A DNA stretch of 64,000 bases from Gnetum montanum. Lineage: Eukaryota; Plantae; Gnetophyta. This document shows positions 23,305 through 54,783 of the stretch, in pieces. The position numbers were made by a program, and so were the translations under genes. Below the pieces are notes generated by a model. The model did not search any database. It was not told the DNA's origin and saw nothing but the letters and a program-made list of their open reading frames with translations. The stretch lies in the NCBI GenBank assembly GCA_015680685.1, contig MNCI01000563.1, forward strand, positions 1 through 64,000, given 5' to 3'. Position 1 is the first letter of the stretch; each line of letters starts with the position of its first letter.

Positions 23305-24308
23305 TGTAGCAATGGAAAATATCAATACTAGAAAACCAAAATGATCCATGTGAAATAGTTGTAACTCTAAGATCCACAAGCCTCAAAAGGATCTGGAGCA
23401 CCTTAAATGATCTAGCTAATCACTTAATGACTTAAAAAGTCTATTACTAAGAAATGAAATTGAAATAAACTGCAAGGAAAGTGTGTGAAACAAAGGTTCA
23501 ATGTTTGATTGAGAATGAAGAAGTAAGAAAACAAGATGGCCAAAACAAAAAGAACTGGAAACTTTATTTTAAATGTTATAACAAATAGTGCAAAAAAAAG
23601 GGTTCAAAAAGTATAGATCATTGGCTTTAAAAGCTTGAGAACAAAAAATATCTTTTGAAATTTGATGCAGATGGTAAAATGTGTTCTACACTTGATTTGC
23701 ATAGGTCTCTTGATTGATTTGCATAATAAATGTTATTATAAAATCTCTTTGTTCCTAGAAATCTATGCTAAAAAACCTAAAAAAAAAAAGCTGTAAAATC
23801 CATGACTGTGTTATGCTATTTTTGCTCAAAAGTGTAATCTGCCAAAAGTCCTAAAAACTATGTAGAATCTAGTATAAATAGACCTTAAATTTGCTATGCT
23901 AGCACTTATTACACTCATATGCATTTTGGAGCATTACATCATGTTTTTGGGTCATTTTTATGGCCAAAAAGTGTAGCATATGGTTAACTAGATTTTTTGA
24001 GTGTTTCTATCATGTTTTTGTAGTGTATGAACCACCAATATTTTTGACATTTGTGTTGCAAATTGGTAGCATATTTGGCATTTTAACCCTCACATGCTAG
24101 CATAAATGAAATTCACAACATGTGGACTATAAATTTAAATTTACATATTAAAATAGTCCAAATAATTTCCAAAACAAGGCCACAAAGTAGGATTTTTTAT
24201 GGGAAAAAAAAAGTAATTGTTTATGCTCTTGAATTGCTATCAAATTACAATGCAGATTTTTTCTACTAGGCTTTTTATTTCTCACATGAATTTTCGTAAG
24301 GTGTTTCA
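23305..24308 (-). repeat. 3' LTR of element A
   Basis: TGTAGC...GTGTTTCA; collinear with 57036-57477 plus 62509-63083; adjacent PPT (ACCCCCTCTTTGTTG on plus). Confidence 0.85.
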
Positions 24309-25429
24309 TTGACCCCCTCTTTGTTGATTTTTTGAGGATTGACCTGAGAGACATCAACAAAGAATTCAAAACACTAACAAATTCATCACCAACATTTCCT
24401 CTCTACATTTGATTCTATAGCTATCGAATCATGCCAAAGGGTGCTCACAATGGTGAAGTAAGATCACAATGGGATGAGGAGGAATTAGGATGAGATAATG
24501 ACTACATTAATTATCAAAGGATGGTTACATGGGCTAACAAAGAATTCCAAATTTGTTAACATCATGGTTATAGCATGGTAGTGACATATTTGCTAATTGA
24601 AGAGGTCTTCGTGCTTCATGCTGGAACTATTGGTTACTCAATGATGTTTAGGAGAAACTAGCATTTTTTAATAGGCTTCTTTGACTACTTGAATCTCTCT
24701 CTCTTTTTGAGAGCCATTAATTTACTTAAATTTAGGCTACATTATCCTTTTTGCTTTCTTGGCATTTTCTCCTTATATATATATGGAAGCAAAACCTTCA
24801 TTGGGTTACATTGACAAGCCTAAATTTTCATTTTCTTACTAAATGAAATGTGTTACATTCAGTGAACTTGATGATTAAGCATGTTGAGGATATCGCATGG
24901 CTATGGTTCATGAATGTTGAACATAGGTTTTCACTATTAGTAAGGTAAGGAGGGCTATAGTTTAGTTATGTGGTTATGGCTCAAAAGGGAGAAGTGATGT
25001 GAGGTAAGCACTATTGGTACAGTTGAATCACATACATCAAGATTGGATAATAACTCACTACTACGATGAGTTGCACCTTTGCAATGGCTCCAGGATTATC
25101 CTACAAACACAATTCCATGTGTATAAGAAAACAAATCAAAGAATACATGCTATTATAGAAGGTTATATGAGGCAACAAGCAAATGTAGGCCATCATAGAT
25201 TACAACTAGCAGAACATCAAAACTGTATTTCTTGCTTTACAAGCTTATACAAAGTTTGCAATACTTTTATATGCCAAAAAGATAGGAGGTTATACAAGAT
25301 TGCTTGTTATAGGCCACTATAGTTGTCAACATCCATCATTCATCTAAACCTATGAACAAAGGCAAACAAAGGCTACAAGCAAATGGGTCAATGTTAGATA
25401 TAATAAATTTTAAGATAGGAATGGTTGGC

Positions 25430-28400
25430 TAGATTAGTCAATTCATTCTCATCCATGTTTACCAACTTGAATGCTCTATTGTCATATGCTTTGGTAACCA
25501 GAAAAGATCCTTCCCAATTAACTGAGAATTTATCTACATGTTTGCAAATAGTCTTGAGAACAAGGTCTCCACTTGTTTAGATCATGAAAATGTTGTTTTT
25601 TCTACTTCCTTTGATATCATTCGATGTTGGTGAGAATTTGTATTGATTTCTCTTCTACCAAATCCAGGTTAATAGTTTACAACTCATTGTTTTGTCCATC
25701 ATTGATGTAGTTAGATAGAGCTACCGTTAAGAATGGAACTTGCAATTCAAGAGGCAAAATAGTTTCAGATTCATAAATCAAGCTATAAAGGGTGGCATAA
25801 ATTGTGGTTCTAAAGGTTTTCCTATACGATCAGATTGCATACAATAGTTGTTCATGTCATTTACATTTGTCATTGCTTAGCATTTTCTTTAGGATGTTTC
25901 ATGATCTTGTTACTTGCTTTAGTTTGGCCATTGGCTTATGGATAATAAGATGATGAAAATGAATACTTAATGTTTAATCATTCATAAAAGGCTTGCATTT
26001 CTTGGCTACTAAACTATGTTTGGTTATTTGTAACAATGTATAGGGTAGGCCAAAATGGGATCTATTTTATCTAATATGAATTTAGAGACTTTTTGTGATG
26101 TTGTTTTTCTTAGAGGAATAGCTTTAACTCACTTCATGAAATACTTGGTTATAATGATGATGAAGCTATGCCCTACAAAGGATTTAAGAGTTATTGATCC
26201 AAATGTATCAGTTCCCCACGTTTGGAATGCCAACATGATCTGAGTGGTGTGTAACTCAGTCGATGGCATATGCATTAAATTGTTGTACCATTGACACATG
26301 TAACAAGTTTTTTCCTTTTGCAAGTAGTCACTTTCCATATAGGGACAATAATATCCTAAGCATCTAATCTTAGTGGCCATGGCTCTAGGTGCTATATGCC
26401 CCCCACATATGCCATCATGTACCTATTCTAGGGTCATAAGGGCTTCTTCTTTACTCAAGAATAGTAATAATACAACATCATAGGACCTTGGACATAATGT
26501 GTTATTGACTACAATGACATATTATTTTGATCATTTACATAAAACATCCTTTTCAGAAATAATTAGGTTTTGTGGGGGTTCACCATGCATGAGGTAAAAC
26601 TTGATGTCATCATAACACTCTTGTTGAGGCATGTTATCTATGATGGATATAGAATTATCTTGAGTGTTCTACATCATGGGAAGAGCATAATTTTCCATCA
26701 TGAAAGGTACTTTACTAAACACATCAAGCATCACACTTAGGGATAAGGTAGCAATGGCATCCGCTAAGGTGTTTTCAGCTCTGGGAATATGTTGTATGTT
26801 AACATCTAGAAACTTCAACAAAAGTGTATTGGCTAAATCATAGCAAGATTATAAATGTTTAGCTTTGCAAGCATAGACTTCAATCACTTAATTGACTACT
26901 AGTTATGAATCACCTTTTATCATTAAACATGTGAATCCATGATTATGAGCTATCATCATTCCTCTAATTAATCCTTCGTAGTTTGCCATATTTTTGGTAT
27001 ATGAAAACTAAAAATGATAAGTAAAAGGTTGAATCTCATGAGAGGGGAGAGTTATGATGACAACAATACTAGCTTCATGGGAAGTTGAAGCTCCATCAAT
27101 GTGCATGATGGCCTTATAACCTTCAGGTACATCGTTAATAATGTTAGTTCTATGATTGCATTATCCTATAATGGGGAAGCAATTAGTTGTGAAGCTATGG
27201 CTTGACCCTTTGTTAAGGTGTGGAACACATAATGTAGGTTAAACTCAGTTTTTATGGCTTTTCACTAGGTTATTTGGCTACTCTCATAGATATTGGTCAT
27301 TATAGCTCTTAGTACACTATCCTTGCATATGACATTGACTTGACTCCTAAAAAGGTAGTGTCTCTACTTCTTTAAAAAGAAGACTAGGGCTAGAAAATTC
27401 TTCTTAACTACAATGTATTGAGTCTCATAAGCTACTAATGCATGTATCAAGTAGCAGATAGGTAACTCTGCTCCATCATTTAATTTTTTATAGAGAAAAG
27501 AGATGTTTCATAGAATGCAAGGTAGATGTAAAATGGTTTATATTTTTTAGGGAGTACATGATAGAACTAGGACAACTCTTACTTGATACTATCAAAGGCT
27601 TCTTGGCATTGGTTAGTCCACTCATAGTGAATCCCCTTCTTGAGCAAGTGTTGCATGGGTTGTAGCTTATCCGTGAACCTTGAGATGAACCTACAAAAAA
27701 AATTGCAATCTACCTTGTAAATTTCATAGTTCTTTAAGGTTTCTAGGTGCTAAAAAATTAGTTATGACCTTAACCTTATCAGGATCAACTTGTTTTCCTA
27801 CCTTGGATACTATAAAACTAAGCATTTCCTAGGTTTTAACACTAAAGACATACTTCTTAAGATTAAGTCTAAGTTCATACTTGAGACATCATTAAAGGAC
27901 CAATTTTAAGTTACCTACATGGTTATTAGCTATCTTGGACTTTATGACTATATTGTCAACATAATCATTAAGCAAGCCTAGCATATAGTCACTAAAGATG
28001 TAAGTCATGGCTCATTGATAGGTCGCATCTACATTCTTCAAACCAAAGGACATCATTCTGTAATAAAAGGTTCTCCAAAGGGTCATGAAGGTTGTACAAA
28101 GTTTATTTTATAAGTTAATCCTAACTTGGTTGTATCCCAAGAACTCATCCATAAAAGATAACAAAGCATGGCTAGTCATAGTATTAATAAGTTGATCAAT
28201 ACTAGGTAGAGGAAAATCATCTTTAATTTTCCTTGTTGAGGTCATAGAAATCAATACATATATGAATGCTCTCATTCTTCTTAGGGACTACCACTATGTT
28301 GGACACCCAATCAACATAATCAATAACTTGAATGAAACTAGCTTAGTGAAGCTTCTTGATCTCATCATGGATTTCTAGGGCTAAATCTGGTATGATCTTA

Positions 28401-28834
28401 TGCACCTTTTACTTAATAGGCTTGATTCTATGATCAAGTATAATGTTATGTTAAACCAAGAATGGGTCAAGTCCTAGCATGTCTTTGTATGATAATGCCA
28501 ATACCTTAATGTTATCCTAGAGGGCCTTGGTGATGTCTTGAGCTAGTAGGGATTCGAGTGAGGAACATAATTTCAATGTTTTCTTCTCATCATTGTGGAT
28601 TATAACAAGATCTTCAATTAGGAAATCCTCTTTAATCTCTCTAACATTTAAGTTGAGGGTTTTTACTATGTAATTGGGTCATTCTAGGGAGTTCTCTATT
28701 AAAGCTATGTGGTCAAATAGGTTCCTAGGCTCAAGATCTAGGAATTTGAGGTCAATTGAGCATTCAACATCACCATAGGATTCATTCAAGATCAAGGGTA
28801 GGTTGAATTGTTCTCATACCTTCATAGCTTGATC
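25430..28834 (-). pseudogene. Element A pol: RT, RNase H, archaeal-type RNase H, integrase
   Basis: DDFPLPSIDQL, MSFGLKNV, aRH MHIDGAST...NYEGLIRG...KGDS*LV, integrase MATKIRCLGYYC...FQTWGTD, NWEGSF; heavily degraded. Confidence 0.85.
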
Positions 28835-28949: not shown

Positions 28950-29620
28950 ACAAGGTAAGAAAAAGCAAAATAAGGTTCAAATAATGTCAAAATGAGGTAA
29001 AATGAGGTTAAATAAGGTTGGATAGGGTGAAACTAGGTAGAAATGGGCCAAATAATGTCAAAATGATAAAGAGTAAGGATAAATAAGCACCAAATGAGGT
29101 TGAATGAGGCCTAAATGATGCCAAATAGCACCAAATGATATCAAATGATGCCAAATGATGGTAAGGTGAGGCTAAACAAGGTCAACTAACATCGGAATAA
29201 TGTAAGATGATGTCAAATGGTATCAAATGACACCAAATGATGTTAAAATGATATCAAATAAGGTCAAACAAGTCGAATGATGTCAAAATGATGCATAATC
29301 ATGTCAAAGCGATCCAAAATGGTATCAAACAATGTCAAATGATGTCAAAACAAGGAAAAATGATGGAGGATGGGGTCAAACAAGGTTAACTAATACCAAA
29401 TGAGGTCCAATGACATCAAATGATAATCTCAAACAATGTTAAAACATGGTCAAATGATATCAAATGCTATCGAATGAGGTCAAAATGAGGCTAAACAAGG
29501 CCAAATGATCTAAAATGAGGTCAAATGATGTTAAAAGGTACCGAATGTTGTTAAAATGATGTAAAATGGTGTTGAACTAGGTCAAATGACCTTGAATGGG
29601 ATTAAAGATGGTGTTAAATA
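28950..29620. repeat. Short-period (~10-11 bp) tandem array
   Basis: Iterated AAATGATGTC / AAATGAGGTC / AAACAAGGTC units. Confidence 0.8.
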
Positions 29621-31016
29621 ATATTACTTACTTTTCTTAGTCATTTTGTAATCAAAATAATCAAAAATCTAGTGAAGAAAAGCAAAATTTAGTGAAAATA
29701 GGTTATAAATTGTTAAAATAATGGGGTTTTGTGGTTAAACTAGTCAAAAAGGCCAAAAATTCCTATCTCTAGTGTGTGGGCATCATGTCACATGTCCAAA
29801 GTGTGGGGCTCCATCTCTCAGCATGTGGCTATTCTAAGATGAATTCCCAATATGTGATACATGAATTCCAAGCATGTGGGGATTTTTGACCAAGAGTTTG
29901 GCTTGTCTAGACTTATATGATAGCATATTGGCTATGTGGGAGATATTTATAGTTTTTTTAACCATTCTAGGCATTGTATGATCCATATTAACCAAGTCAA
30001 TCACTTGTTGATGTTCCACATGCTACTAGCATGTGGGACTTGGTTTCCTAGCGTGTGGGCAATCTAGCATGGATTTATAGCATCTAGAACCCAAACCCTT
30101 AATGTGTGGACACTTTTGAATGGATTTTTGACATGTAGAAATTTTTTGGATTTTTTCTAGGTCTAGTGGAACCATCCAGGCAGTGTATGAGGCTATATGG
30201 GCAACGTATGGTCTATGGTAAACAAGTTAGTTATTTATTTTTATCCCACATGTTGGCACAATGTGTGGAACTCATGTGGGTAATGTATGGGATAAGAACC
30301 CAATTTTGATAGCATATGACATCTTGTTTTTTGGTTAATTTCTCTTGCCCAATGTATGGAGCTCTTGGTAATTTTTTCTAGGGTTGTGGGACCCACCTAT
30401 CAGTTAATTTCACCAATCTAATAGTGTGTGGGGTCCCAGAGGTCAATTGCATATCCAAATGTAATGTATTTGTCAATTTTCTCACACATAGCATTTGGGA
30501 CATTTTTGTAATTTCTTCAATGTCTTGGAGAGGCCACTGGGCAACGTATGAGTAAGTTTGGCTAAGGAAATTGTGTGTTTTTTCTTCACACATTGCCACA
30601 ATATGTCGAACTCATGTGGGTAGCATATGAACCAAGATAATATTTTCCTTATGTGCCACATGTTTCCCTACATGCTTTCACAACATGCAGGACTTGGGTA
30701 GGTAGCGTATGGAGTTAAAACCCAATTTTTACTATGTGTAGAGGTTAGTTTCTTAGCATATAGTTCTTGTAGGTAGCATGTGGGCATTTGGAAGGGATTT
30801 TTTTTCCTTAAAACCCATTGTATGAGCTAATCTTCCCCTTAATTTCTCATTTATAGTGTGTAGAAGCTAGATTTGTGCTCATAAACCCAAACATTCAACA
30901 TTTTTCAATAATTTTTGCTCTTAATCATCTCCTATGCCTAATGTGTTGCATCAAACTTGAGAATTCCAAGCTTCTTTATGTCATAGTCAAGGTAAGATTT
31001 TCAGATTTTGACAATC

Positions 31017-34000
31017 ATGATGAAGAAGGTCATATCAATGAGCTAGAATCCAGTATTGGATGAGGTAGGAGAGGTTGTATGAATCGTTTCTAGGCTTCCA
31101 AATCCATCTACAAGAAAATGATCTTCGTTGGTGATTTTCCATTACCAATTTTCCCTCCATTTTCTTTGATTTTTGGCCAAATTATGGAAATTTTTTCCCA
31201 CCTCTAGGTTTTCTCTAGTTGAAATTTGGCATATCAACTGCACTAAATCTAAGATTTAGGCTTTTTGACTATGTTCGGATGAAAATTTGGAATTTTGGAC
31301 AACTATTGACAAAGATTCAAATTTTCTCCCAAACCCATCTGCAACATTGGTACCATATTTTTGTCTATTGTTTTTAAATATCATCATCTTTTCTAGCTTG
31401 TGCATGGATATATTTTTGAGTTCTGACTCATAAAACTATTGTTTGGGGTTTTCTAGCTGTATTGAATGTGGAATCAAATTGTTTGGATTTTTTTATGAAG
31501 ATATGGGTTTTTTCTCAATCCAATGCACAACACTCTATCCTATTTTTCAAGATTTTTGCAATTTTTTCATGGAAAAATTTGAAAGGTTTATGATTCTTTG
31601 ATAACATATGGTCAATGTCCAAGGTTCCTAGGGATGGAAAATTGAGTGTAGAAGGGTTTTAGATGAAGTTTGAATTTCTTAAAAAAAATTTCAGGCTTTT
31701 TATTGCAATCAATTTACTACAAACCAAGGTTTTTTAGCCAAAATTTGAGTAAGAATCGTGCTTTCTTGCACTTGTAAATGCAGTGTTAATGGTAAATTTA
31801 GGTTGTTTTGGCTATGTTCTTTACATCAATGGTCAAAAATAATTTTTAAAAAATTTTCTAAGGTTTTCCCCAACCTTTGGATCTTCATTGGTCAATTTTG
31901 GATTTTGGTTGTAAAGTTTTGGGCTTTTTATGGCAAGTGTTGACAGCATTTGGATGCTTAGGCTTTGATTTTGGTCATTATGGAGTTTTTCCAATTTTGT
32001 GGCCAATGTATGGTACTTTCTAGACCTAGTAGCATAGTGTATGAGGGGCTTTGGGATTTTCCGAAGAATGAATGGTAGTGTATAAGCTCCTGGAGCTACG
32101 AAACCTTGTGATTTTTGTTATTACTTTTTCCAAATTCCCAATGTTTAGGATTGTTGGGATATTTTACTAGTTGTTTGCTGAAAAAATGCATTCACCAAGC
32201 TCCAATGCTATCAATTTTGGCCATATGTTTCTATAGAAAATTAGTATGATGTCAACTATAAACAAAAATGTCAAACTTGGTGCTCCAGAGAAAATATCTT
32301 GTTTTCATGTTCATCAATTGTCAAATTATCAAACTAAGTTTGTATGTGCCAATTTATATGTAAAAGGACTAAATTTTGGTTTACATTCGAATGGTAATTG
32401 TGTTAGTGAGCTTGGTTATTTTTTGAATTTTTTGTTTAATGTCAATGGTGTCATTCTAGATGCCATTTTTTTTTGTACATTTTTGTTTTACTATTCTTGG
32501 AGGTCTAATTGTGGTAATTTTTTGGTTGTTTCTATTTGCAGGGCTCTACTAAAACCAATCTTAGCTATTGTGGAGTTAATGGGCATGTTGTGTTGCACTG
32601 GGATGGCTACCCAATATAGCTTAGCATCCAACATGAATATTGACAAACACACCTGAGTGTGGTTTAGACCCAATGCTAGAGAGTTTCTAATGTATTTTCT
32701 CCAACATTATGGTGTGCTAATGTGGTCACACTTGGCTATGGATGTTGCCACTATAATTATAGAAACTCTTGTGGTAGGGTCCTCTAACCATGTCTTGCAA
32801 TTTATGGTGGATGATCCCAAAACTCAAAGAGAAATAGAGTTCAAAGAAAGCTTGTATTCTATGGATGTTCGACAATTATCACAAATCTAGGAGATGCTAA
32901 TATACTCATAGTATAACACTAACAACACCTTAATGTTGGGTCACAAAATAAACACTCTATTCCACAACCCTCCTAGGATTGTCTACCTACTAGAAGCATA
33001 AGCTTGGTTTTGGTTTCACATTTTTTTGTTTCTTTTTTTCTTCTATTTTTATGGTTATTTATTTTAACTTTTTTCATACTTTAATTTTGCAAGTACAAGA
33101 TGCATAGTGGAGGATTGGTGGCAAATGACCAAACCTTGTTTGTGGTTTGCATGGCTTTGAAGAAGTTTAGGCAAGGAGAGATCATAAAAGTGTAAGTGCT
33201 TAACCAGGTCAATGTAGAGTTTGCTAGGTACCTTATGTAATATTCTTGCATATACCAAAAGTATGTAGCTATGAATCATGCACATGAATTTTGAGCTCTC
33301 CAAGATTTAGGAGAACATGTACAAGTTCAACCCAAGGTTTCAGCTTTACCTAAGCCTACTGAGGAAAATTTGTTTAAACATGGCTAATATTTTTTAGCAT
33401 TTTTTGATTTTTTTATAGTATTTTAAGTTTTTATGGTTTTACTAATTGTATACAATGTAGAAGGCTAATGGACTAACTATGTTATGTTATAGATTCCGTG
33501 TGTGAGTCTACAATCATCGTGATTACTTCAGGTCATTGAAGAGAAGATTCTCCTCAAGTGGGATGAAGTACACATAGCACAAGAATGATTGGTAAACAAG
33601 CTCCTACAAACATCTAATAGAGGCTCACTAATGCAATCTTGTTTAACTTATTCATGCTACCTAGTCCATCCATATTGCAGGCTGAGATGTTGAATGTGAT
33701 TGACTCTTTTGACGAGGGGATAACCAAGTTTGTCACTCATGTCCATGATTTTTCCATTATTTTAAGTGTTAATGAGTCAATGTTTAGCGATCTTTTTGGC
33801 CTACCTTCTAGCGGTTTGAAGGTGGTTGTTACAACAGCGAAGGATGTAAGCCATAGCGAGGAAATGAAAAATTAGCTCAAATCCCCTCGTAATGTAGTGT
33901 TGTCTTTTTGTAAATGTGATGTCGATGAGGCAAATACTACTTATCCTCTTTTCCACTCTCAAGCCTTTACCATGCTACTGTGACAAAAGAGAATTATAGG

Positions 34001-36178
34001 GGTTTAATAGGCTTGGACTATGAAAAATATTTTGATCGATGGCACTAGATTTAATTAGGTTGGCTTTTTTATCACTATTCTAAGGGGTGAAATCCAAAAA
34101 CTCTGTGATAATCTTGATTTCATATACCATGTGCATTATACGTTCTTTGGTACATATCATAGAAGGTTCACAAAGTTCTTGGTGATTAAGAGAGATGGAA
34201 AGTGGGTAGCATGGGATTTATTTTAACTTTTCAAGCCTTGGGCTAAACACATTACCCATGTGATGTGCATCCAAGACCCACCCATGGAGGATGTTAGAGG
34301 GTCGTTGTTTGCTACCACTAAAAATGTTAGTGGTGTATGTGGTTTTTTTTCCTAGCACAAGGATTGAGCCTTGTGCTACACATGGCAATTTAAAAAGGAC
34401 AAAGAGGATTCTCACAGAAGTAGATGACACTACCAGAGAAAAGATGAAGAGGCCACAAGTTGAAGAAAACATTCTAGTTGCTAGACAACCAGCACCTAAG
34501 AAGCTAGCCATCAAGCTTAACAAGGCCAACCAATCTATTGGAGGTATGTATATGTTTTTTATATTGTTATTTTTTCAGTTTTTATATTATTTTGTTTGGT
34601 TATATTTTTCATTATATTTTTGTTGCTAAAACATGTTTACTAATATGTTTTATTTTTACTAACTTTGGCTTATTGTAGGAAGGAAATAGGATTTGGCTGC
34701 CCAAGCTACTGAAAAGGAGGAACAAACACATAAGGAAGAAGAGAAGAGGACATCCAAGGAAGCATTAGATGTCTTGGATTCCATCTTGGATGATATGGCT
34801 TCAGAAGGCAACCCTCCAATGAACTTGTCTCATGATCTTCCTAGTAACTTTTGGTGTCGTTTATACTTTTGTTTCAAATTTTATACATTCTTGTTCTAAA
34901 CTATATTGATTGTTATAGTCATTGCAATGCATAAGCCTCATCCAAAAACATCCACATCCACATTCCACACTAAACCTTAGACAAAGACTCTAGACAAGAT
35001 GGAATTCATGAAAGGAATCATGGATGATATGGTTGACAGATTGCAACAATTGGCTCCTAATGTTGGTAAGAAAAAATAAAATATTTTTGTCTTGCATTTT
35101 TGGTTTTTCTATATTTTCATTTTCATGTTTTATGGATTCATAGTTTTTATGTTTTTAAATATTTTCAATGTTTTTAATGTTTTTATGTTTTGGATGTGTT
35201 TTTATGTGATAGTTTCTAAAGTAAAATGGCATCCCATGTGAGATTTTTAGTTCTTATGGAGATTGTACAAAGGAGCTACAAATTATGTTGCATCTAATGT
35301 AAAAACATTTTGGAACTTCCAATGTTCAAACGAGTTCTTATGGAAATGCATTGTGGCATTGGAGAAGTAAAACAAGGAGTTGGAAAACAAAGTAAGAAAC
35401 CTCAAAGACCATAAGACATTCATAGAAGCCCATGTGATCAATAGGGATTCCTTTTGCACAAAGGAGATCAAGTGCTCTCATTATTGGAATGCTATCCAAA
35501 GGAAAGTTGCTCTAGCTAGGAACAACATGGAGGACATGCAGATGGAGCTATTAGTCTACAAAACTACGGATTGGCAAGATTACCATGCATGGATGTTAGA
35601 ATGGGAAAAGAAGCAAAGGGCTCACAAGCAACCATACAAGGCAAAAAAATAAGAACTATATAAAGTTATGGCACAAGGAGGCTATGAAGCAATAGAAATA
35701 TGTGTTCATGTAGGAAATAGGTGTAGAGAACACCTTTAGCAAGTTCAAGGAATTAGTGGTGGTTGTTGATTCTCCTACTACTTAGATCACTATAGCATTT
35801 GGGAAAACTTCTATGGCTACCTTTTCCCATGCTCCTTCTAAGTTGTCAAATATAGAGAAGGGAGAAATCTTGGTAGCAGTAGATCTAGGAGATATCGATT
35901 GGCCAACATGAGTGAAGAATATATTCTTCATAGGTTGAAGACCAGCCTTCGAAAATTCACACCTAAGAACATCACTCTTGAATATCTTGAGGTTTGCAAG
36001 ATTTTTTTTTTAAGTTTTTTGTTATATTTTTTTGTTTGATATTTTACTTGCTTTTTTTCTATTATGATTGTTTTATGGTTGTATGATTATGTTTATGATG
36101 ACTATGAATGTTCTTTATTTCTTATAGGCCCCAAGTGATGATGTTGATGATAATCCTCCTCCTTCCCCTATGGCTTGA
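31017..36178 (+). pseudogene. Antisense multi-exon gene inside element A (FCP1/NIF-like HAD domain + plant-transposon/PMD-like domain + coiled coil)
   Basis: Exon ~32542-32997: KPILAIVELMGMLC...VWFRPNAREFLMYFLQHYGVLMWSH...YNTNNTLML...HNPP. Later exons align with element B's gene (e.g. MEFMKGIMDDMVDRL, YWNAIQ...MQMELL...DWQDY). T-rich GT/AG introns; start codon tentative. Confidence 0.7.
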
Positions 36179-36714: not shown

Positions 36715-37634
36715 TTTAATCATGTAACTACTTTCTAATCTTTGAAAGATTAGGGAATTTATAAGGTTTTTGTTACATGATCTTGTACTCCATGTTCCCT
36801 TCGTTTATGATACTAAATGGGAGCTCTTCCAAAAATTCATTCATAACCCCAATGTTGTTGGCATTGGCTTTGTTGGTTAGGTTGTGGTCCTTGGCTTTGT
36901 TTCAGGTTATAGAAGTTTCTTCTTGAAACTCCAGCTCAAATCCTTACTCAAACTCAACATTGTTGATAGATAAAGGAATTGTGCTATCTCCATGAATAAT
37001 AATTTCACCTTCCTTGTAAGGTAAATGAATCTCCTAGTGGATTGGGGGAAAAAAATACTCACAACTTGGCCAACCATGATCTTCCTAGAATTAAGTTGAA
37101 GCTTGGTATTTCTTTAATAACTAGGAAATCAAAAAATGTGTGGAATTGTTCCCTAGCCATGAAGTCTAACAAAATTGATCCTCTCACCACTATAAATAAC
37201 CCATTAAATGATTAAGTGAAAAGGTAGAGGTATTCTTGATGTGCTCAACTAAGCCTACACGTTTTACCATGGGAAAGGGGATTACATTTGTGGCTACTTC
37301 ATCATCAATGTGTACTCAGTGTAGTTTGTGCTAGCCAACTCTAATAGTTATGAAGAGAGGGGCTATTAACACTTCACCACTCTAAGGGTTGGTTTTCACC
37401 TCACTATCATAGAATATCAAGGGGGTTGGCATCATTTCTACCTTGGATGAGCATGGTACTATCATTGCCTAGATAGACTCTTCATTGGCTAGGATTTCCT
37501 CACTTACGGGAATGGAAGTAAACATCTTAAGTAAGGCTTCCTAGTGAGTAGGATAGCTCATAACTAAGTCATACAAGCTTAAAGAAGTATTCTTCTATTT
37601 TGATGAAATATTGGCTTTTGGTTCTTTGGCCACC
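36715..37634 (-). pseudogene. Element A protease region (end of gag-PR)
   Basis: VHIDDEVATNVIP, FNLILGRSWLAKL, IHLPYKEGEIIIHGD; parallels element B ORF 49115-49690. Confidence 0.8.
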
Positions 37635-37639
37635 ATGGC

Positions 37640-39178
37640 TGTAACGACGGAAAACGTCAGTCGCTGGAAACTACCAAACGAAAATCCGTGTACACAGTCT
37701 TAACCACAGATCCGTGCGAGGACCGTGCTAGAGAAAACGAATCCGCCGTGCCTTGAACACTCTTGTCGATTAGACAAGGACTTACTCAATCAGTAAATCA
37801 ACAAATATTGCGATAATATATGTATTATATAGATATTCCATGCAACAATTTGATTCGATGAATCATAAAAGGAGTAGAAAACGATGTAAATGAATTGAAA
37901 TAACGACAATGTCAATGTGACAAGGAAGATCAGATTTAAGAAGGATGTGCAATTCCAAGATCTATGTTTTGACTTGAAAGCTGAGAATATTGTATATAAA
38001 GTTCCAATGGCAAACTCCGCTTATCTTGTGCGAAGCATACACAAAATAACAAGAAAAATGTTCAATAGGAGCACAGAACGAAGCTCGGTCTACCTCGTAA
38101 GCCAAAGATGGGATGCAAGGAAGGTCAAGCCTGGATGTCTATCGATCAAATTTTTCTGATCAACAGATCTTGACAACCGCACCAGATGATCTCTCGATCT
38201 CTGATCTGCTCCCTTTTTGCCTTCGGTAGTCTCTACTCAAAACTGCCAATGATCACCAATGGAGAGAACTGTATTTTCACCAAAGGACTGATCGCTCCTG
38301 CTGCCAATGCTCAAGCAAATATCTTCTGTTTCTGCTCAAAAGGTGATAGTTGCCAAAAAATCCCAAGATGATCCTCTCTTTAGATCTTCACCAACTAGAG
38401 TATTTATAGGTTTGATAGTACATGGAGAAGGCACGGTCCTGATGACATGTATTTCAACCTTCAAAATACCATTGACTTGGCAAAATTTATGTTGAAACTG
38501 CTCATGTCACATCACGTCTTTTGGAAAAGGGGGCAAAGTACGCTGTCAACCACTTCTGCTGAAGCCACTTCACGTATTGTGCATGTGGATAGCAGGTGCG
38601 TATATGGTACTGCTTTAGCCAGCTTTAGGCTGTATTACACTCGTTTGTGCTGTGTCACGTGGTAGAGCGTAATAGAGCATGGAAATAGTTGATTCAAGCT
38701 GTTTTACGCTCCTTTACGCCGCAAAGCATAATAGAGCATAAAAAATGGTCAACTTTACAATAAATTACGCTTGCCTACGCTGTGTAGCGTAATGAGCGTA
38801 AAGCGACCAATCTGCAAAAAAGAAGAAATCAATCTGCTGCGCTTCCTTGGACTCTGACTTTGCTTTCCTTGAAGCTTGTTACGCTGCTCTGCGTAACGGA
38901 GCGTAAACTTAGCTCTGAACAAAAGACTTAGTAGAATTGCAATAAGTCTTAAACCTTAAACTTTGTCAAAATTATCGAAGTAAGTTACTTTTTGATATTG
39001 GGCTATGTTAAACAGAGTTACACTGAGCAACACTACACTATGTTGCGTAATGTAGCATAAAGAGAGAGATTCTATTTGCCTCTTTGCCTTATTTTGTTTT
39101 CTAGATTTCTGTCATGAACTTTTTTCCCATATAGTGAATCTTTGCCTTAGGCCGATTTGCAATTTCTATGGTGTTTTA
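37640..39178 (-). repeat. 3' LTR of element B
   Basis: TGTAACGA...GTGTTTTA; highly similar to 53173-54778. Confidence 0.95.
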
Positions 39179-40380
39179 ATGGTCCCTCTTTGTTGATGTT
39201 TAGAGGGCTTGCCCGAAAGATGTTGACAAAGAATACGAAACACCGGATGAGTAAAAGTACCAACAACATTCATCAATGGTTACTCAGGTGTTGCCTTGTC
39301 ATTGGAGAAGTGCAGAAATGAGGGAAACAAAAGATAAAAGGGTATGGGAAGGAATTCTTATAGAAGTAAGAGGAAAAAGGTTCGGGGAAGACTCAAATGA
39401 GGTTCGGGGAAGACGCAAATGAGTGAGTATAGTTTTTTCACGTATAAGCACTTAGGATTTCTCCTGCGATTGTGTTTGCATGGAGTTATGTCATCATTTT
39501 GTAGATGAAGGGGCTTGCATAGATGAATTGTGTTGTGTCTGTGTAGCCTGGATGAGTTGTGTTTCATCCATTTTGCCGACCCACTTTTTTTTTTACGTCC
39601 ATTAGGTGAGTTGCATTACGTCGATTTATGGACTTGATTGTAATGCCAATGCAGAAAGCGTATATTGCGTATTCACATTTTGCGTAAGGGAAACAGATGG
39701 TGGAAATGCAGGGAAGTAATAGCTAGAGGTAGGATTATGAGGAAAACAGGGATGCACTCCTAAGTGGACAGGCTAACCTAAGCGGCCATCTCAAAATGCT
39801 GTCTGTATTTCACCGCTCAAATGAATGCACCTTTGAACAACATCCTAGTAGTAAGTGACCTGTAACCAAAGAAGAAAATAGAGGACACCATTGCTCGGTC
39901 AAATCACTAGAGAGGTTGTTGAAACAAGTACTGTTTGGGGCAAGACAGAGTGAGTGGGTCATGAAGGAGGAACTGTAGCACAAGACTAGAGTCTTCAACA
40001 TTGATGCTCGGCCCAGCATATCACTGCCAAAGAATATCAAGCTCATCGCACCCGACTGGTTATGCAAAGAACCAGCTAGGTGAATCTATGAAGCTAGAGC
40101 CTGATAGTGATGATGAGTGGAGATCCCCAAGGTTGTGGTTGATGAAAACTCCTTTGGAGCTCCAAGTGGCGAAACTAACCTCTCAAAGGTGCCACTGCTG
40201 GAATGAGTGTAGTGACAGCATCTCCGAGGGGTTAGTAGTATGCCTTTCAGTACATCCGAGGAATCAGTAGAATGCCTGTGAGGTAGTGATGCTGGGGTTG
40301 TCCCAACGTCCCACCCCATTTGTTTTGTAGCTGCACAGAGATGATTACACTCGCTTGGTTTGCATGTTGGCGGCCTGTAA

Positions 40381-41003
40381 GTCCTAGTTTTAAGTCCTGG
40401 TAGACTGTCATTGCTGGTTTTAAGTCTCAGCAGACCATGGTCCCAGTTTAAAGTCTGGGCGGAGTGAAAAAGTGCTAGTTTTACGTCATAGCAGATGGTG
40501 GTAGAACTAATTTATGGTCTCAGCAGACCGTGCTATGGATGTCAGTTTCATGTCATGACCCAGGGATAGATCTGTGCTGGTTTCTCGTCTCAGCAGACGG
40601 ATACTTACCTATGCCATTTTTATGTCCTGGTGGGCAGCCGGTGCCAGTTTAGCGTCGTGGTAGACGCGTGCAAGAAATACTAGTTTTACGTCTTGGCGGA
40701 CCTGTACAACACTGCCATTTTTACGTCATAGCAGACGATTGCAACTTGCTAGTTTTACGTCGTGGCGGACGATTGTTACCAGTTTAGCATCGTGGCAGAA
40801 GCGTGCAAGAAGTGCCAGTTTTACGTCATAGCGGACGATCAGTGCTAGTTTAGTGTCATGGAGGATGTATGAGGAGAGTGCTAGTTTAGCATCGTAGTGG
40901 ACGATTGTTGCTAGTTTAGCGTCGTAGCGGATGGTTGTTGCCAGTTTAGCATCGTAGCAGACGATTGTTGCCAATTTAGCGTCGTAGTGGATGATTGTTG
41001 CCA
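40381..41003. repeat. 30-37-bp tandem array downstream of integrase
   Basis: Units such as CCAGTTTAGCATCGTAGCAGACGATTGTTG; regular at the right end, degenerate leftward. Confidence 0.9.
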
Positions 41004-41059
41004 TGCCTGATGTTAACACTGGATATGTAGCTAAATGTAGTACTACTTCAGATATATAT

Positions 41060-43991
41060 GATTCACAGGATTGGGTAACTCATTGTCGTTCATATCTGCT
41101 AGCTTGAATGCACCGTTTCCATACACATTCGCTACCAAGAAAGGGCCCTCCCAGTTTGCAGAGAACTCGCCTACTAGTTTGCAAATGGCCGTGAGAACCA
41201 AATCTCCCTTCTTGATCGAACGTTGTTGAAGGTTATGACGGTGCTTCTACCTCTGCTTATCTTGATACTTTTCGATGGTATTAAGCGTCTATATTCACTT
41301 CTCCTCTATTGAATCCAAATCCATGATTCGAGACTCGGTGTGTTGAGCCTCATTTATAATCATAGAGAGGACCATTCGTAGAGAAGGAACTTGTAATTCG
41401 AGGGGCTGCACAGCCTCGGATCCATAGACTAGGCTATAGGGTGTACTTTCTATAGCTATTCTGCATGTGGTACGATACACCCATAGCACATAGAGGATCT
41501 TTTCATGCCCCCATCTCTTGTTGCTGTCAAGCATTTTCTTGAGTAAGTTGATAATGACCTTGTTTGTTGCTTTAGCTTGACCATTCGCTTGCAAGTAATA
41601 AGGTGAGGAAAAAGATTGTTTGATACCAAGTTTGTTGCAAAAGGATTTGGTTTCCAGACTACTAAATTGTGGCCCATTGTCCATCATGATAGTCATCGGG
41701 AGACCAAATCTAGTTACAATGTTATCTAGAATGAACTGACAGATCTGTTGGGATGTGATCTTTCGCAGAGGAATGGCTTCCACCCACTTCATGAAATACT
41801 CAGTGGCGGTGATTATGAAGCTATGACCTATGGAAGATTTCAGTGTGATAGGCCCTATAATGTCTAATCCCCATCGTTGAAAGGGCCATGTTATTTGAGT
41901 CATGTGTAGTTCTGTAGGCGACACGTGTATAAGGTTCACGTAATGTTGACACGTGTCGCACGTTTTAACCTTTGTAAGACAGTCTTTTTCCATGTACGGC
42001 CAATAATACCTTAAGCAACAGATTTTAGAGGCCATGGCCCGTGGTGCTATGTGTCCTCCGCATAATCCCTCGTGGACTTCATCGACTATACATTGCGCTT
42101 GATCTTTGTTAATGCAAGTAAGCAGTACTCCATCAAAAGAGCGTCTATAGAGGGTACTATCTCCTATGATGACGTACTGCCTAGCTCGCTTGCGAATTGC
42201 ATCTTTCTGCACACGTTTTAGTTCGTGCGTTTTAGTTTGTCGCCATGCAAGAGGTAATTTTTAATGTTGTCGTACCACTCTGGCATTCTATCCTCGAGCA
42301 GTGAAGATATTTGCACCGCCTGAATGATAGGGTCTGTACAATCTATTATTAAGGTGGGACAAGTGTTAAACAAGTGCAATGGCATGTTTAAAGCTAATGT
42401 AACCAGTGCATCGGCTAGTGTGTTATCGTTTCGGGGCATGTGTTGGGCATCGATCGTTGTGAACCGCTTCAGAAGATCTTTAGCCATATNNNNNNNNNNN
42501 NNNNNNNNNNNNNNNNNNNNNNNNNNNNNNNNNNNNNNNNNNNNNNNNNNNNNNNNNNNNNNNNNNNNNNNNNNNNNNNNNNNNNNNNNNNNNNNNNNNN
42601 NNNNNNNNNNNNNNNNNNNNNNNNNNNNNNNNNNNNNNNNNNNNNNNNNNNNNNNNNNNNNNNNNNNNNNNNNNNNNNNNNNNNNNNNNNNNNNNNNNNN
42701 NNNNNNNNNNNNNNNNNNNNNNNNNNNNNNNNNNNNNNNNNNNNNNNNNNNNNNNNNNNNNNNNNNNNNNNNNNNNNNNNNNNNNNNNNNNNNNNNNNNN
42801 NNNNNNNNNNNNNNNNNNNNNNNNNNNNNNNNNNNNNNNNNNNNNNNNNNNNNNNNNNNNNNNNNNNNNNNNNNNNNNNNNNNNNNNNNNNNNNNNNNNN
42901 NNNNNNNNNNNNNNNNNNNNNNNNNNNNNNNNNNNNNNNNNNNNNNNNNNNNNNNNNNNNNNNNNNNNNNNNNNNNNNNNNNNNNNNNNNNNNNNNNNNN
43001 NNNNNNNNNNNNNNNNNNNNNNNNNNNNNNNNNNNNNNNNNNNNNNNNNNNNNNNNNNNNNNNNNNNNNNNNNNNNNNNNNNNNNNNNNNNNNNNNNNNN
43101 NNNNNNNNNNNNNNNNNNNNNNNNNNNNNNNNNNNNNNNNNNNNNNNNNNNNNNNNNNNNNNNNNNNNNNNNNNNNNNNNNNNNNNNNNNNNNNNNNNNN
43201 NNNNNNNNNNNNNNNNNNNNNNNNNNNNNNNNNNNNNNNNNNNNNNNNNNNNNNNNNNNNNNNNNNNNNNNNNNNNNNNNNNNNNNNNNNNNNNNNNNNN
43301 NNNNNNNNNNNNNNNNNNNNNNNNNNNNNNNNNNCCATCCATGAAGGATAAAAGCACATGCCCAGTGGTTGTATCCACTAGTTGGTCGATACTCGGTAAT
43401 GGAAAATTATCCTTGATTGTAGCTTTGTTCAAGTCTCGGAAGTCTATGCAGATGCGTATCTCTCCGGTCTTTTTAGGAACAACTACAATGTTAGATACCC
43501 AGTCTGAGTAATCAACCGCACGAATAAAACCAGCCTGGTACAGTTTAGTGATCTCATCACGTACTGCTAGCATGACTTTTGGCTTAATTTTTTGTGCTTT
43601 TTGTCTAACTGCTTTGATATGGGGATCTAGAATTATGTTGTGTTGTATTAATCTTGGGTCTAGTCCCGGCATATCTTCGTATGACCATGCAAACACCGTG
43701 ATATTATTCTGGAGGATCTGTTTTATGTTGTCATGTGCCATTTTGTCTAGTAAAGAACTAACCTTTATGCGTAACCACAGAGACCTCATTAAGGAGGTCT
43801 TCAATTACATCTCCAGCTTCCAGATCTAGCGTGCGCGTCAATTGTTCTGGCCAGTCTTGAGATGTTTTCGACGTGGCTATGGTTGCGTCATCGAGGGAAA
43901 GGTTAGTTTCTACTAGCGTGAGATCAAATTTTCTAATGATTTCCCCTTGGGGGCTTGTTAAAACTAGGAGCGCAGGTAAAGTTTTGTCCAT
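41060..43991 (-). pseudogene. Element B pol: RT (partly in gap), aRH end, integrase
   Basis: FAWSYEDMPGLDP...CIDFRDLNKA...FPLPSIDQL; HMPRNDNTLADAL; 305-aa integrase ORF 41295-42212 (HxxxH..CxxC, WGLDIIGP, DNGPQF, NGQAKATNK); NWEGPF at ~41150; N gap 42490-43334. Confidence 0.95.
42490..43334. other. assembly gap
   Basis: run of N within element B pol. Confidence 1.
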
Positions 43992-44489
43992 TTAGCAATT
44001 GTCCTGCAAAATTGTCAAATATGAAAGTAATTAGAAAAATGCTAAGTTGGATGTGATAAACATTTAGCGTATAGCACTTCTTTTAGTCTAAAAGGAAAAA
44101 GGATGTGATGTGACGTTGCTGAGCATCGGAACCTGACTAAATTTTGAACATTGTGAACAGCCTGTAATTAATGTGACCTGATTACGAGGAGATAAGATGC
44201 AATAGTTTAAGGTCATTTCAGACTGTAATGCATGCGATATCTACCACAATTAATGCCTTGATTTTCGATTTCCAGCTCATACTGGCACCAGCATTTGGGC
44301 AAGTCTTGCTTTAATCGGGCATCAAGTCAGTTAGTTTTGCATATAAGTAGGCAGTTCGCATCGAAAACAGTCTGTTGGCTATCACAAATTTGAATTCTTG
44401 GCTGTCACCGAGAGAAGGAAAAAGAGCAAAAGACTACAGCATGTTATTTGTGAAGGTATTCAGGTGTGAAGGTGTTCAGGACTGCAACA

Positions 44490-47400
44490 ATGGCGCCGAA
44501 AGTTAGAGGAAAGAATACCAAGTTGGCTAAAATTAACGAAGTACAAGGGAGCCTGCAGCGTGCTTCGCAGGCCTTGGTCGAAGTGAGGGATGTCACTCCC
44601 TTGAATCGATAGGCCATCTCTTATTTACTCGTATTGATTCTTCTAATACGCTCTTTTTTTGTGTTTATTCTTTTTGCGTCCTCTGCGTAAACTAGAGTTT
44701 TATGCTGTAGACCTCGTATTGAAGCGAGGGTTTAGACGACAGTATTGCATCTATCATCGTTGTCTGAGACAGACCTTGTACTATTACAAAGGTTTCAGCA
44801 ATTTTGGTTGTATGGCTAGAGCGTAATTTTATAAATTTTCCTATAGTTTAAGCATGCAATCAGAATCTAGATGGTAACGTGTTTATTTTCTGTACAGTAT
44901 CATGGTGAAACCCGTCCTAATCGTTCTGGATATAGTCGGGGTTTTATGTTGTATAAACCCTATCGTACCCAATGTTCCTCCCCCTCAGACTTGGTTGCAG
45001 GGGAAGGCTATATGGTTCTAAAAGGGTGCGCTGGAGTTTCTACATTTTTGCTATGTAACTATAGTATTATCGTGTGGTCGCATCTGTCGGGCGATGTGGC
45101 TGGCACTATTTTGAAACATCTGTTAGTGGGTTCTACGTAGGACATCCTGGCTTTCTTGACAGATGGGGCTATTAACACTGGGCATCCCCAGGACCGCGAA
45201 CTTAGTGCTAGAGGATTCAGGTGTTTAAGTTGGATCTAGGAGATGCCCATATTTAGCTGCTATCATGCATATAATACTTTGTTCGTGGCTCGTCATGTTT
45301 CAACTTACTTTCAGAATCCTCCAGGCACGGTGTATTATTTAGGCAAGTAAGTTGTTTTACTGGCGGTATTGTCAATATGCTTCTAATGTCTGAATTTGCA
45401 AACTGTAGAAAAGTAATGTGTTATATGATACAGGTTTTTCATCAACGAGAATGGGTTAGTAGGCAATGGTGATACATTGTCTTGGACCGAAATGGCAATA
45501 AAGGAGTTTATGTCTACCAGCAACGTACGCGCCAGTGTAATGGGACAGACGGCCTTCAACATTCATGAGTATCCCACCCATTATGCTGATTCCTTCAAAA
45601 ATTGTCAGAATTTCGGGTGGTTACATAAAGAATGGACTTTGAACCCACCCCTTACCCTCGTGGACGTGCAAAGGAAGCTCCCTCCATTTCCTTTGCCATT
45701 TGGACCAGGTAAGGTTTTGTTGCTGCTATTAGTTACAGGGTATTATATTTTTTTGGTTTTGAAATGTTGCATAACAGTGTTTTCGCTATGTTGATATGTT
45801 CCATGTATTATCAGTCAGGGAATCCCAAGAGATTACCATCACTAATTCTGGCCGCGAGGCGAACACCCTCCTTTTCTGCTATGGCTACATAAAGGAGGTA
45901 CAACGCTGGCTTGGCCACGTAGTGGCCCCAGTTGCGTTGGTCGCCAAGCTGCGGGAAGCAAGGCTGATGCATTTATTTCTGGTCGTAACCCCTGATGTCC
46001 CCGCAAGCGAAATGTTGACCCTAGTTAACTCCTTCAGCGAGGGAGCTGAACGTTTTTGCACACGCGTGCGTCACATGCTTGTAAAGTTTGATATCGACGC
46101 TCAGCTATTCACTAACCTCTTTGGCGTCCCCTCTGACGATCTTCCCATAGAGGAAAAATCAGGGGAGAAGCATCAAATGTTAAAAAGAGTTGGAGGAGTG
46201 GTTGGGGATGAAGAAGGAGGCCAAGGGGATCCCTTGTGAAAAGATTGAATTAGAGGTTGCCAAGACTATTTATCCCCTCTTCCGAGCCCAAGCCTTCCCC
46301 AAAACACTCTCGCAGGGGAGGTTCTTTACTATAGAATAGGCCCGTATTATGTGAGAGGTGATGGAGGAGGGGACCCAATTTGACTGGGCAAGCTATTTCG
46401 CTAAGGGGTTATGCATTGAAATGGTGAGACTCCGTCAAAAGCTCGAGTCGCGTTTCAGTGTGCACTTCGCCTTCTTCATAGCTTGCCTCCAGCGTTTTGC
46501 CAAATTTTTGGTTATCTAGAGGAATGGGGTCTGGGTCCTACAAGACCGAGACCAGTTATCCAAACCTTGGATTTCTCATATCTTCAGCACTACTCAGGCA
46601 CAGGATCCTCCAGAGGGAATTGGGGAGTCACTATCTATAACGACTAGGGATTTGGTGGCATCTCAAATGTGGGGCCCTGACAGTGTAGCTGGGGCACTTC
46701 CCACTTACACTGGTGATGCATCATGGGGAAAGCGCATGGCTACAGAGATAGTAGACGCCTTGGTTCAGCGTAAAATACCTTGCTTAACCGAGGCCCCTAT
46801 GGAACTAGCAGGTGGCACGGGCAGAACTGTGCAAGTCAGAGTCCAGTGGAGTAAACCTCCACCTGGTAAGCATAAATACATAGTGAAAGTTATGGAAATT
46901 ATTGTATTATGCAACTTTATTCAAGGTATTCTAAATCGTTTAAATGTGTTATGTGGCATGAACAGGGAGACCTATAGAACGGTTGACCCTTGAAACATGG
47001 GCAGTGGTATTACGGCATGGGGAAGGGGCCCCAGTTTTGGAAGAGGAGGCCCCAACTGTTAGAATAAGTGATGCACAAACTCTTGTGCGTGAGGAGAGAG
47101 AGGAGGCGAAAAAAGTTGACACACTCCCCACTGTAATAGGTAGAGGTAATCAGTGTATTAGAATTTTTTGTTTGGAATTCTGTTAATAACTAGAAATTTT
47201 GACTTAATTACGCTATAGATGAACAAGGTGCATCCCCGTCCGTCATTGTCAGCAGAGTGTGGGGGGAATTCCCTGATAAGTTTGCCTTCATGGAAGACAT
47301 TGTCAGTGACATGATCGAGTGCCTCGAGCACGTGGATCCTGGTGCTGGTATGTTACTGCTATTGTACGCTTATTTTATTATAAGGTTATGATGTTTATTT

Positions 47401-48552: not shown

Positions 48553-49114
48553 TTGTGATTTACGCATAATTTTATTGATGAAATTTGAACAATGGTAATA
48601 TGAATGTTGGTGAGATTACTCATGAGATTTTTCTTATGGCTTTTATTTAATTTTATGTCTTTATTTATACAAAGCATAAACAGGATGGAATTAAAGACTT
48701 TGGATAGGTTGCGTTATTATGACTGTAGAATGGAGTATCTAGTTTAAGGCCATTGCGGGCCGTCACATAGCATTTTCATAAGATATAAATAGAATGAACT
48801 TGCTATTTTTAGGCCATTATGGGCCTTTATTTATTTTTAGACCATTGCGGGCCACCGCTAGTTTTAGGCCATTGCGGGCCATTTGCGTACGTCTGGGAGT
48901 GTAATTAATAAAAATGTACATATCTGCGTAATTGTGCTAATATGACTAGTAGAAGTCAAGAAGCGTAAATAGCATAAAATGGAGAATGTAAATAGCATAA
49001 TTGATAGAAATCGTAAATACATTTATGTATATTAAAGAAAACTAACAATCAAATTCGATAAGTGTAAGCAAAAAACTAGTAAAAGTGTAACGATGCGCGT
49101 AAATACCACTCAGA

Positions 49115-52923: not shown

Positions 52924-53132
52924 TTTTCAAAGAGGTTAATGACAACAAATGACAGGATCTAAAAGGTGATAGCCAAACAGAATTATGAATGGGCTTTTTG
53001 CCCTGTAGGATTCCAAAGGAATCATTGCTGTGACCAATCTACACCACACGATTTCATAAACTTCCTTAGAGGTATTACGTTTACATTTTTATAGGCGTGG
53101 GTATGGATCGCTTACAGGGCTACCCGTAAAGT

Positions 53133-53166: not shown

Positions 53167-53172
53167 AAAAAT

Positions 53173-54778: not shown

Positions 54779-54783
54779 ATGGC

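Follow-up and report, generated by a model that had tools for sequence, protein, structure and literature searches.

An antisense multi-exon gene between protease and reverse transcriptase in two related Tat retrotransposons from Gnetum montanum

Retroelements are expected to lose introns, and a multi-exon gene kept on the strand that is never packaged offers a way round this loss. Whether such a gene exists, how it came to its place, and what it would do for its carrier are the questions raised by the first 64,000 nucleotides of contig MNCI01000563.1 of Gnetum montanum (assembly GCA_015680685.1), the stretch analysed here and referred to as the window. The window is plant-like DNA packed with nested long terminal repeat (LTR) elements. 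Elements A (23305 to ~63083) and B (37640-54778) are Tat-type Ty3/gypsy elements, both on the minus strand, with B nested inside A and each ~17 kb long once inserts are subtracted. Both carry a homologous gene on the plus strand (32542-36178 in A, 44898-48552 in B). It is a real, old, and constrained antisense gene in two related Tat families: sequence homology, position between protease and reverse transcriptase (RT), codon-level constraint, intron phases, and a NIF/FCP1-like N-terminus link the two copies, and their carriers have the Tat domain order. The position between protease and RT was not stressed in the earlier note on this DNA, which was made from the sequence alone.

Homology, exon structure, and selection

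According to tblastx, the plus-strand homology is collinear from A 32471-35920 to B 44827-48173. Ten A-B block pairs were also compared with 300 shuffles each, using the best of 9 frame pairs, and 7 of them exceed the shuffles (z from 7.3 to 49.6). Exon 5 (z 0.9), the last exon (z -1.3), and the upstream segment 31017-32393 (z -0.3) do not. The claim that A and B hold the same gene at the same position and strand is thus borne out by both analyses, and the shuffled-control check proposed with it succeeds for these seven pairs and fails for the other three. The LTRs of A and B are indeed unlike apart from their ends, with no blastn match and a best local score of 32. All quoted peptides were located as expected; the B string of the first alignment, however, is non-contiguous, with a frameshift near 45040. 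A gene start at 31017 is not supported; 31017-32393 has neither homology in B nor a Pfam match (one frame per strand). Conversely, one homologous exon had been overlooked (33093-33382 in A, 45434-45708 in B, z 12.2). The exons and introns are the following.

31017-32393, plus strand: 5' part of the gene in the earlier note, unsupported as part of the gene
32542-32997, plus strand: A exon 2, first part of the NIF/FCP1-like domain (z 29 against B)
33093-33382, plus strand: A exon 3 (z 12.2 against B; no Pfam match)
33493-34543, plus strand: A exon 4, middle domain (z 24.7 and 49.6 against B)
34679-34843, plus strand: A exon 5, charged linker that cannot be aligned to B (placed by phase and frame; z 0.9)
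34919-35065, plus strand: A exon 6, short conserved helix-like segment (z 7.3; donor at the same aligned codon as in B)
35213-35991, plus strand: A exon 7, predicted coiled coil and conserved C-terminal block (z 22.9 and 21.5)
36128-36178, plus strand: A last exon, 16 codons and a stop (phase-0 acceptor; no homology to the last exon of B)
44898-45346, 45434-45708, 45815-46865, 46966-47139, 47219-47347, 47425-48242, and 48319-48552, plus strand: exons of the B gene
44490-44608, plus strand: possible first exon of B with an ATG at 44490 (tentative; neither a canonical donor in phase nor an equivalent in A was found)
A 32998-33092 and B 45347-45433: intron, phase 2
A 33383-33492 and B 45709-45814: intron, phase 1
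A 34544-34678 and B 46866-46965: intron, phase 1
A 34844-34918 and B 47140-47218: intron, phase 1
A 35066-35212 and B 47348-47424: intron, phase 1
A 35992-36127 and B 48243-48318: intron, phase 0

The combined length of exons 2-8 is 2,939 nt for A and 3,130 nt for B. Splice phases are 2, 2, 1, 1, 1, 1, and 0 in both elements, with six introns and one acceptor agreeing in order and phase. At the first acceptors (32541 and 44897), A and B have an identical overhang of one base, located at the same aligned codon, which confirms the common start phase reported for the NIF-like exon at 32542 and 44898. As for the last exon (36128 and 48319), phase 0 is found in both copies as reported, but the match is one of splice phase and position, not of sequence. 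The first acceptor, intron 2, and intron 6 lie at the same aligned codon, and the other introns, situated in poorly aligned linkers, agree by order and phase. All 6 introns of B are GT..AG and 76-106 nt long. GC content is 20% (A) and 28% (B) in introns versus 39% and 48% in exons, respectively. In contrast to the exons, the intron cores of A and B fail to align in all 6 cases tested (z from -0.9 to 2.7).

Across 640 aligned codons, identity at the first, second, and third codon positions of the gene equals 0.514, 0.620, and 0.331, the proportions of nonsynonymous (pN) and synonymous (pS) differences are 0.43 and 0.80, and pN/pS is 0.54 (bootstrap 0.48-0.60). The corresponding values for pol and protease (750 codons) are 0.663, 0.767, and 0.384, with pN/pS of 0.34 and pS of 0.80. 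Since synonymous sites are saturated in the gene, as they are in pol, dN/dS could not be estimated. The proposed codon alignment was thereby carried out, and it reveals constraint at positions 1 and 2. In neutral simulations (30 at each of three distances, aligned as the real pair), the largest gap between identities at positions 2 and 3 was 0.126, 0.190, and 0.311, with 579, 383, and 248 codons aligned on average, respectively. The observed gap equals 0.289 over 640 codons, and neutral runs aligning a similar number of codons reach at most 0.126. The faster rate of the gene compared with pol fits the fast evolution of accessory proteins described in PMC13547354.

Both gene copies are broken by stops and frameshifts. 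With blocks chosen in that frame, the coding frame has the fewest stops of the six (22/747 in A vs 40-62, and 12/760 in B vs 27-50). Stops in the A gene are no more common than in its pol (17/640 vs 22/750, p 0.87), which makes it likely that the gene was intact when A inserted. Two stops are located at the same aligned codon in A and B. Kimura two-parameter (K2P) distances between paired LTRs, which reflect the time since insertion, are 0.097 for B and 0.213 for A, far below the saturated A-B distance. The constraint therefore acted while the lineages replicated, and the A-B divergence arose in replicating lineages, the copies having drifted little since insertion. Together with codon-position identity, pN of 0.43 against pS of 0.80, non-aligning introns, and sister integrases (see below), this upholds the claim of long-term selection on the protein rather than a one-off transduction. 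That the benefit goes to the element, as was also proposed, we infer.

Encoded protein and carrying elements

Three methods assign exon 2 to NIF/FCP1: Atlas (0.95, with 30 of 30 matches in NIF), Pfam (E 0.0014, under its cut-off), and a comparison with solved structures, in which the sole match is UBLCP1 (E 0.34, 90 positions). Two word-based protein searches with exon 2 found nothing (41 and 1,539 candidates). We take exon 3 to hold the end of the NIF-like domain and a linker, judging by resemblance. The family motif DxDxT (PMC4436666) is not kept in these two decayed copies, B having one aspartate there and A none, and the residues opposite the later acidic pair of UBLCP1 are not acidic. The domain is likely to be catalytically inactive. 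Structure models are too poor to use (pLDDT 39.8 and 33.2), and one fold search returned no HAD or other fold match.

The best-conserved part of the gene is exon 4 (350 codons). This middle domain matches no Pfam family beyond weak similarity at chance level. It has 0 matches among 1.84 billion representatives, searched with a three-row profile whose second row is partly misaligned, and 0 matches among solved structures at E up to 10. Its Atlas matches (0.91-0.92, recognition 1626) are below the trust level, and none of 203 pattern matches in metagenomes was confirmed. A resemblance to PMD could not be confirmed. Exon 7 is coiled-coil-like, judging from weak matches to helical Pfam families only. 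Pfam scans with limits of E 1 and E 10 detect neither Transposase_28 (PF04195) nor PMD (PF10536), though a remote relation may exist. A nested DNA transposon was considered as well and is ruled against, since Pfam finds no transposase domain in the gene and no terminal inverted repeats bracket it.

The gene is carried by the following sense-strand features and repeats.

23305-24308, minus strand: A 3' LTR (~80% match to 57036-57479 and 62505 to ~63083)
25394-28834, minus strand: A pol with RT, RNase H (RH), additional RH, and integrase (Pfam RVT_1, RT_RNaseH, RVT_3; tblastx to B)
29011-29590: 10-nt tandem array in the protease-RT spacer of A
36720-37600, minus strand: A protease-like region and end of the gag-pro frame (41-57% identity to the B protease region)
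37640-39178, minus strand: B 3' LTR (paired with the 5' LTR; 5-bp target-site duplication)
41031-44003, minus strand: B pol with integrase, additional RH, and RT start (gap of N at 42490-43334)
49115-49976, minus strand: B protease-like region (Asp_protease_2 and gag-asp_proteas, both weak at Pfam E 0.092)
50402-52695, minus strand: B gag (Pfam Retrotrans_gag E 1e-4)
53173-54778, minus strand: B 5' LTR (primer-binding-site-like stretch at ~53140-53167)
54784-56000, minus strand: A gag, continuing past the B insertion (54935-55146 is a 69% DNA match to B gag)
57036-63083, minus strand: A 5' LTR, interrupted by a Copia element
~57480-62504: Copia element within the A 5' LTR (RVT_2, SH3, GAG-pre-integrase; LTR K2P 0.097)

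Paired LTRs, a target-site duplication, and the order gag, protease, RT, RH, integrase place both elements in Ty3/gypsy, with domains recognized by Pfam, the protease weakly. The duplication is exact for B (5 bp at 37635-37639 and 54779-54783) and matches at 3 of 5 bases for A, and the paired LTRs are 87% and ~80% alike, respectively. The pol of A is broken by stops and frameshifts, and its gag has no Pfam match at E 0.001. The B protease-like region adjoins gag and ends in its own stop at 49115; the C-terminal ends of the two proteases align weakly (z 2.2). Additional RH between RH and integrase is the order of Tat structure #1 (PMC10508981). In A, RVT_3 is found between RT_RNaseH and integrase with E 8e-16, while in B a block homologous to additional RH adjoins the integrase, the remainder falling in the gap of N.

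The B integrase has 122 relatives at E <=1e-20, the best-scoring of which are 42-48% identical and include flowering plants and Cryptomeria. The tree, which lacks a true root, is built from one 164-residue block in the 49 of 122 rows that cover at least 135 residues, all rows being database hits. It places the integrases of A and B as sisters (100/100), apart from the Taxus-Ginkgo-Cryptomeria clade and the flowering-plant clades, with weak support for deep forks. This sister relation fits inheritance from one ancestor.

The spacer between protease and RT extends from 49115 to 44003 in B (~5.1 kb) and from ~36720 to 28834 in A (~7.9 kb). The A spacer is ~3 kb longer, holding the 10-nt tandem array and a low-complexity stretch (29011-30850 in all) between the RT start and the gene. 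Gag-pro and RT occupy separate frames as in Ogre, with the gag-pro stop at 49115 and the RT frame from 44003 in B. Scored with a splice-acceptor matrix, the predicted sense-strand acceptor at the B RT start (before 44003) ranks 1 of 287 spacer AG sites. The A-B homology of the RT frame begins at the predicted acceptors (z 6.2 global, 9.4 local), and a methionine follows each of them within a few codons.

Several further repeats were recorded in the window. A primer-binding-site-like stretch is common to A and B (53140-53167 and 57009-57030). We take it to resemble the 3' end of a plant tRNA-Asn over an unusual length, which Rfam did not confirm; the Rfam scan of this stretch gave no tRNA match (tRNA-Arg being the Ogre criterion). 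Tandem arrays of 30 and 66 nt separate the integrase of B from its 3' LTR (40382-41003), and such arrays also occur in the 3' regions of Retand and Ogre. A third LTR element (~6016-14203) has LTRs at ~6016-7015 and 13566-14405 that are 82-86% alike, a gap of N, and a plus-strand gag (Pfam E 3e-13). Its sense strand also holds a long extra frame (~10880-13100) that is broken and matches nothing in Pfam. This extra frame shows no detectable relation to the antisense gene (z at most 2.0). Finally, an 89-nt inverted match (79%) of 6928-7015 to 15364-15451 probably marks where a related element, lying in opposite orientation, has its LTR end and primer site.

Regarding sequencing reads, 27-42% of the sampled words of B occur in 8 DNA runs with four organism labels from three studies, the best of which may be the source of the window itself. 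The run index lists no RNA run among the holders of these words. In one DNA run of another organism label, 77,321 contigs give depth in 30/30 bins of B, and summed depth, which is not a copy number, amounts to ~6,700-41,400 for the gene, 4,100-54,600 for gag, and 86,900 for RT. B-family DNA, gene included, is abundant in that run, whose contigs are too short to link the gene to pol. A short motif occurs four times after the B gene (48740-48885) and once, weakly, before it (44200-44225), and some contigs join both, skipping the gene. In three RNA runs, 1,031, 347, and 110 reads fall on 43400-53170, with 65-82% of them running on into sequence unlike the stretch. As most are <90% alike, they come from other copies.

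Explanations for the antisense gene

The gene was probably inherited from a common ancestral element; it is predicted to be spliced to encode a protein of ~1,000 residues, a likely nuclear accessory factor. It would be transcribed against gag-pol from a promoter of its own, as reported for Grande gene23, which also has a nuclear location (PMC7264820); in A and B this promoter would lie in the spacer, close to where RT starts. The introns would outlast each reverse transcription, because the packaged minus-strand RNA, on which they are not introns, hides them from the spliceosome. A spliced sense message would join gag-pro to the acceptor at the RT start, removing the 5-8 kb spacer together with the gene, while unspliced RNA would be packaged. 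In Ogre, a fraction of the transcripts loses the corresponding interval by splicing, so splicing is taken as the likeliest route to pol, and on balance we favor an Ogre-like spliced message for pol with packaging of unspliced RNA. In the last and weakest step, which we put forward tentatively, the protein would combine a helical domain and a coiled coil with a phosphatase fold that has lost catalysis but still binds phosphorylated partners, such as the RNA polymerase II tail, and it would favor transcription of the element or blunt host silencing. The NIF-like domain, the nuclear location of Grande gene23, and the analogy to VANC and the PMD-PP7 module suggest this step.

A number of observations weigh against this explanation. 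Only two gene copies were analysed. The Pfam NIF match (PF03031, E 0.0014, 18.8 bits) is under the cut-off of 21.8. Among the A introns 4 of 6 are GT..AG, one starts with GC, and in the remaining one neither end is canonical. Because splice sites were selected manually, guided by the frame, the agreement of seven phases is less striking than a naive chance of 1 in 2,200 implies. Single neutral runs at the largest distance reached the gap of 0.311, although with only ~248 codons aligned on average. Stops in B are 11/640 in the gene versus 5/750 in pol (p 0.08). On the sense strand, the A acceptor (before 28834) ranks only 8 of 398 AG sites, and no conserved donor was found after the protease when A and B were compared. 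As for RNA, depth over the gene is low with most reads <90% alike, the 15 joints listed (of 70) include no RNA-supported intron joint and no spliced read, and a cluster of 36 reads continues into intron-2-like sequence, i.e., is unspliced. These sparse RNA data do not favor splicing or the predicted strand.

The route to pol may be contested while the inherited accessory gene is kept: pol could arise from its own internal start or be supplied by other elements, with no splicing of the spacer. The gag-pro frame ending in its own stop in both elements, the lack of a conserved donor, and the methionine soon after each predicted acceptor would suit this alternative. It is nevertheless improbable, given that the B acceptor is the best of 287 spacer AG sites, that A-B homology begins there, and that this interval is spliced in Ogre, whose domains are in the same order (PMC6317226).

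According to another explanation, the gene is a passenger, i.e., a host gene or DNA-transposon accessory gene that was constrained elsewhere, entered A and B separately, and was carried along from then on. Its intron-rich structure is typical of host and DNA-transposon genes, the B gene has a slight excess of stops, and five low-depth DNA contigs skip the whole gene. Separate entry, however, has to contend with the same spacer and strand, the sister integrases, the missing terminal inverted repeats and transposase domain, and a coverage of the gene region as deep as that of gag in the family. The skipping contigs themselves hold only 22-24 bases on their short side, and the similarity of the flanks is within the shuffle range (score 29 vs a shuffle maximum of 36). 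We consider this origin distinctly improbable.

Slightly more doubtful still is that the gene was selected in ancestral families and was already dispensable in these subfamilies, other copies acting in trans. The stop counts of B and the two stops that A and B share at the same aligned codon point that way. The B difference, however, is not significant and A has no excess. Shared stops are also expected at mutation-prone codons of methylated plant DNA. Finally, a role of the antisense RNA or the spacer instead of a protein, for which one could cite the proposal of antisense RNA as a regulator for such ORFs (PMC7264820) and the dominance of first-mate-minus reads over gene and gag in run X13 (library type unknown), is highly improbable and, as sole explanation, largely refuted by first and second codon positions being kept while third positions and introns are saturated.

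Comparison with known systems

An inherited accessory gene of this kind bears on an open question, namely the roles of antisense extra open reading frames (ORFs) in plant LTR elements, most of which have no recognizable domain. The gene in A and B has a recognizable domain resembling a host enzyme, with altered catalytic residues, which permits direct tests of splicing, phospho-peptide binding, and effect on element RNA. It may help the element to control or shield its own expression.

Ogre, itself a Tat element, has the same order of RT, RH, additional RH, and integrase and a spacer between gag-pro and RT-RH-integrase that is spliced from part of its transcripts (PMC6317226, PMC4408406). Its spacer, however, averages 274 bp, compared with ~5.1 kb in B and 7.9 kb in A that include a whole antisense gene, and its extra ORFs are located upstream of gag or downstream of pol. 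Retand, Grande (gene23), RIRE2, and Tat III/V carry an antisense accessory gene in most copies of a family (PMC7264820, PMC11963269, PMC4408406), in a layout of domain plus coiled coil (PMC4408406), and a nuclear regulator is proposed for it. Those genes are described as plain ORFs between pol and the 3' LTR with Transposase_28 or PMD, whereas the gene in A and B lies between protease and RT, has about seven predicted introns and a NIF-like domain, and matches neither Pfam family. In the full-text literature searched, no multi-intron antisense gene between protease and RT was found, although the 2011 Steinbauerova survey could hold a similar case, and no NIF domain in a plant LTR element was found, the extra-ORF domain table of PMC6317226 being perhaps only partly covered.

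Outside flowering plants, clusters J and K of gymnosperm Tat structure #1 have the same domain order (PMC10508981, PMC13468544). The parts of their text available mention no extra ORF or intron, and the A/B clade stands apart from Ginkgo, Taxus, and Cryptomeria. In the supplement of PMC10508981, annotation of both GAG and protease is missing from 6 of 7 listed J/K structure-1 representatives and from 2 of 9 in cluster L. A long spacer would produce such a pattern, which is a lead only. A broader proposal, which we regard as unlikely, is that a Tat clade hides an intron-rich gene in its gag-pro/pol intron, encoding a captured and catalytically dead polymerase II-tail phosphatase that would act as a decoy or adaptor and maintain transcription of the element in the face of host silencing, and that such genes are widespread in Tat J/K of non-flowering plants. 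They would have escaped notice, since a spliced antisense gene is invisible to ORF scans and the long spacer makes domain pipelines lose gag-pro.

As for the protein, the sequence pattern of the domain core resembles that of the NIF/FCP1-family HAD phosphatases UBLCP1, SCP1, and FCP1; the domain in A and B, however, is without DxDxT and the acidic pair and is fused to an unrelated domain in a retrotransposon. Another case in which a Tat-type element has kept a host enzyme domain through many replication rounds is the AlkB demethylase of an orchid sister of Ogre (PMC9289625). That capture is recent, its catalytic residues are kept, and it is active in vitro, whereas the gene in A and B is old and its residues are apparently lost. 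NIF is not among the domains named in the available text of PMC9289625, its supplementary domain chart aside. Two further systems are VANC, a host factor that a transposon captured and turned against silencing (PMC13547354), and the PMD-phosphatase module (MAIN/MAIL1-PP7L, MAIL3), in which a transposon-linked helical domain and a phosphatase-like partner take part in silencing control (PMC7156037). PP7 belongs to another phosphatase class and PMD is not detected in the A/B gene, so the latter is an analogy only. Antisense extra ORFs in Tat elements are thus already known, and the gene in A and B is unusual among them in position, intron number, and domain.

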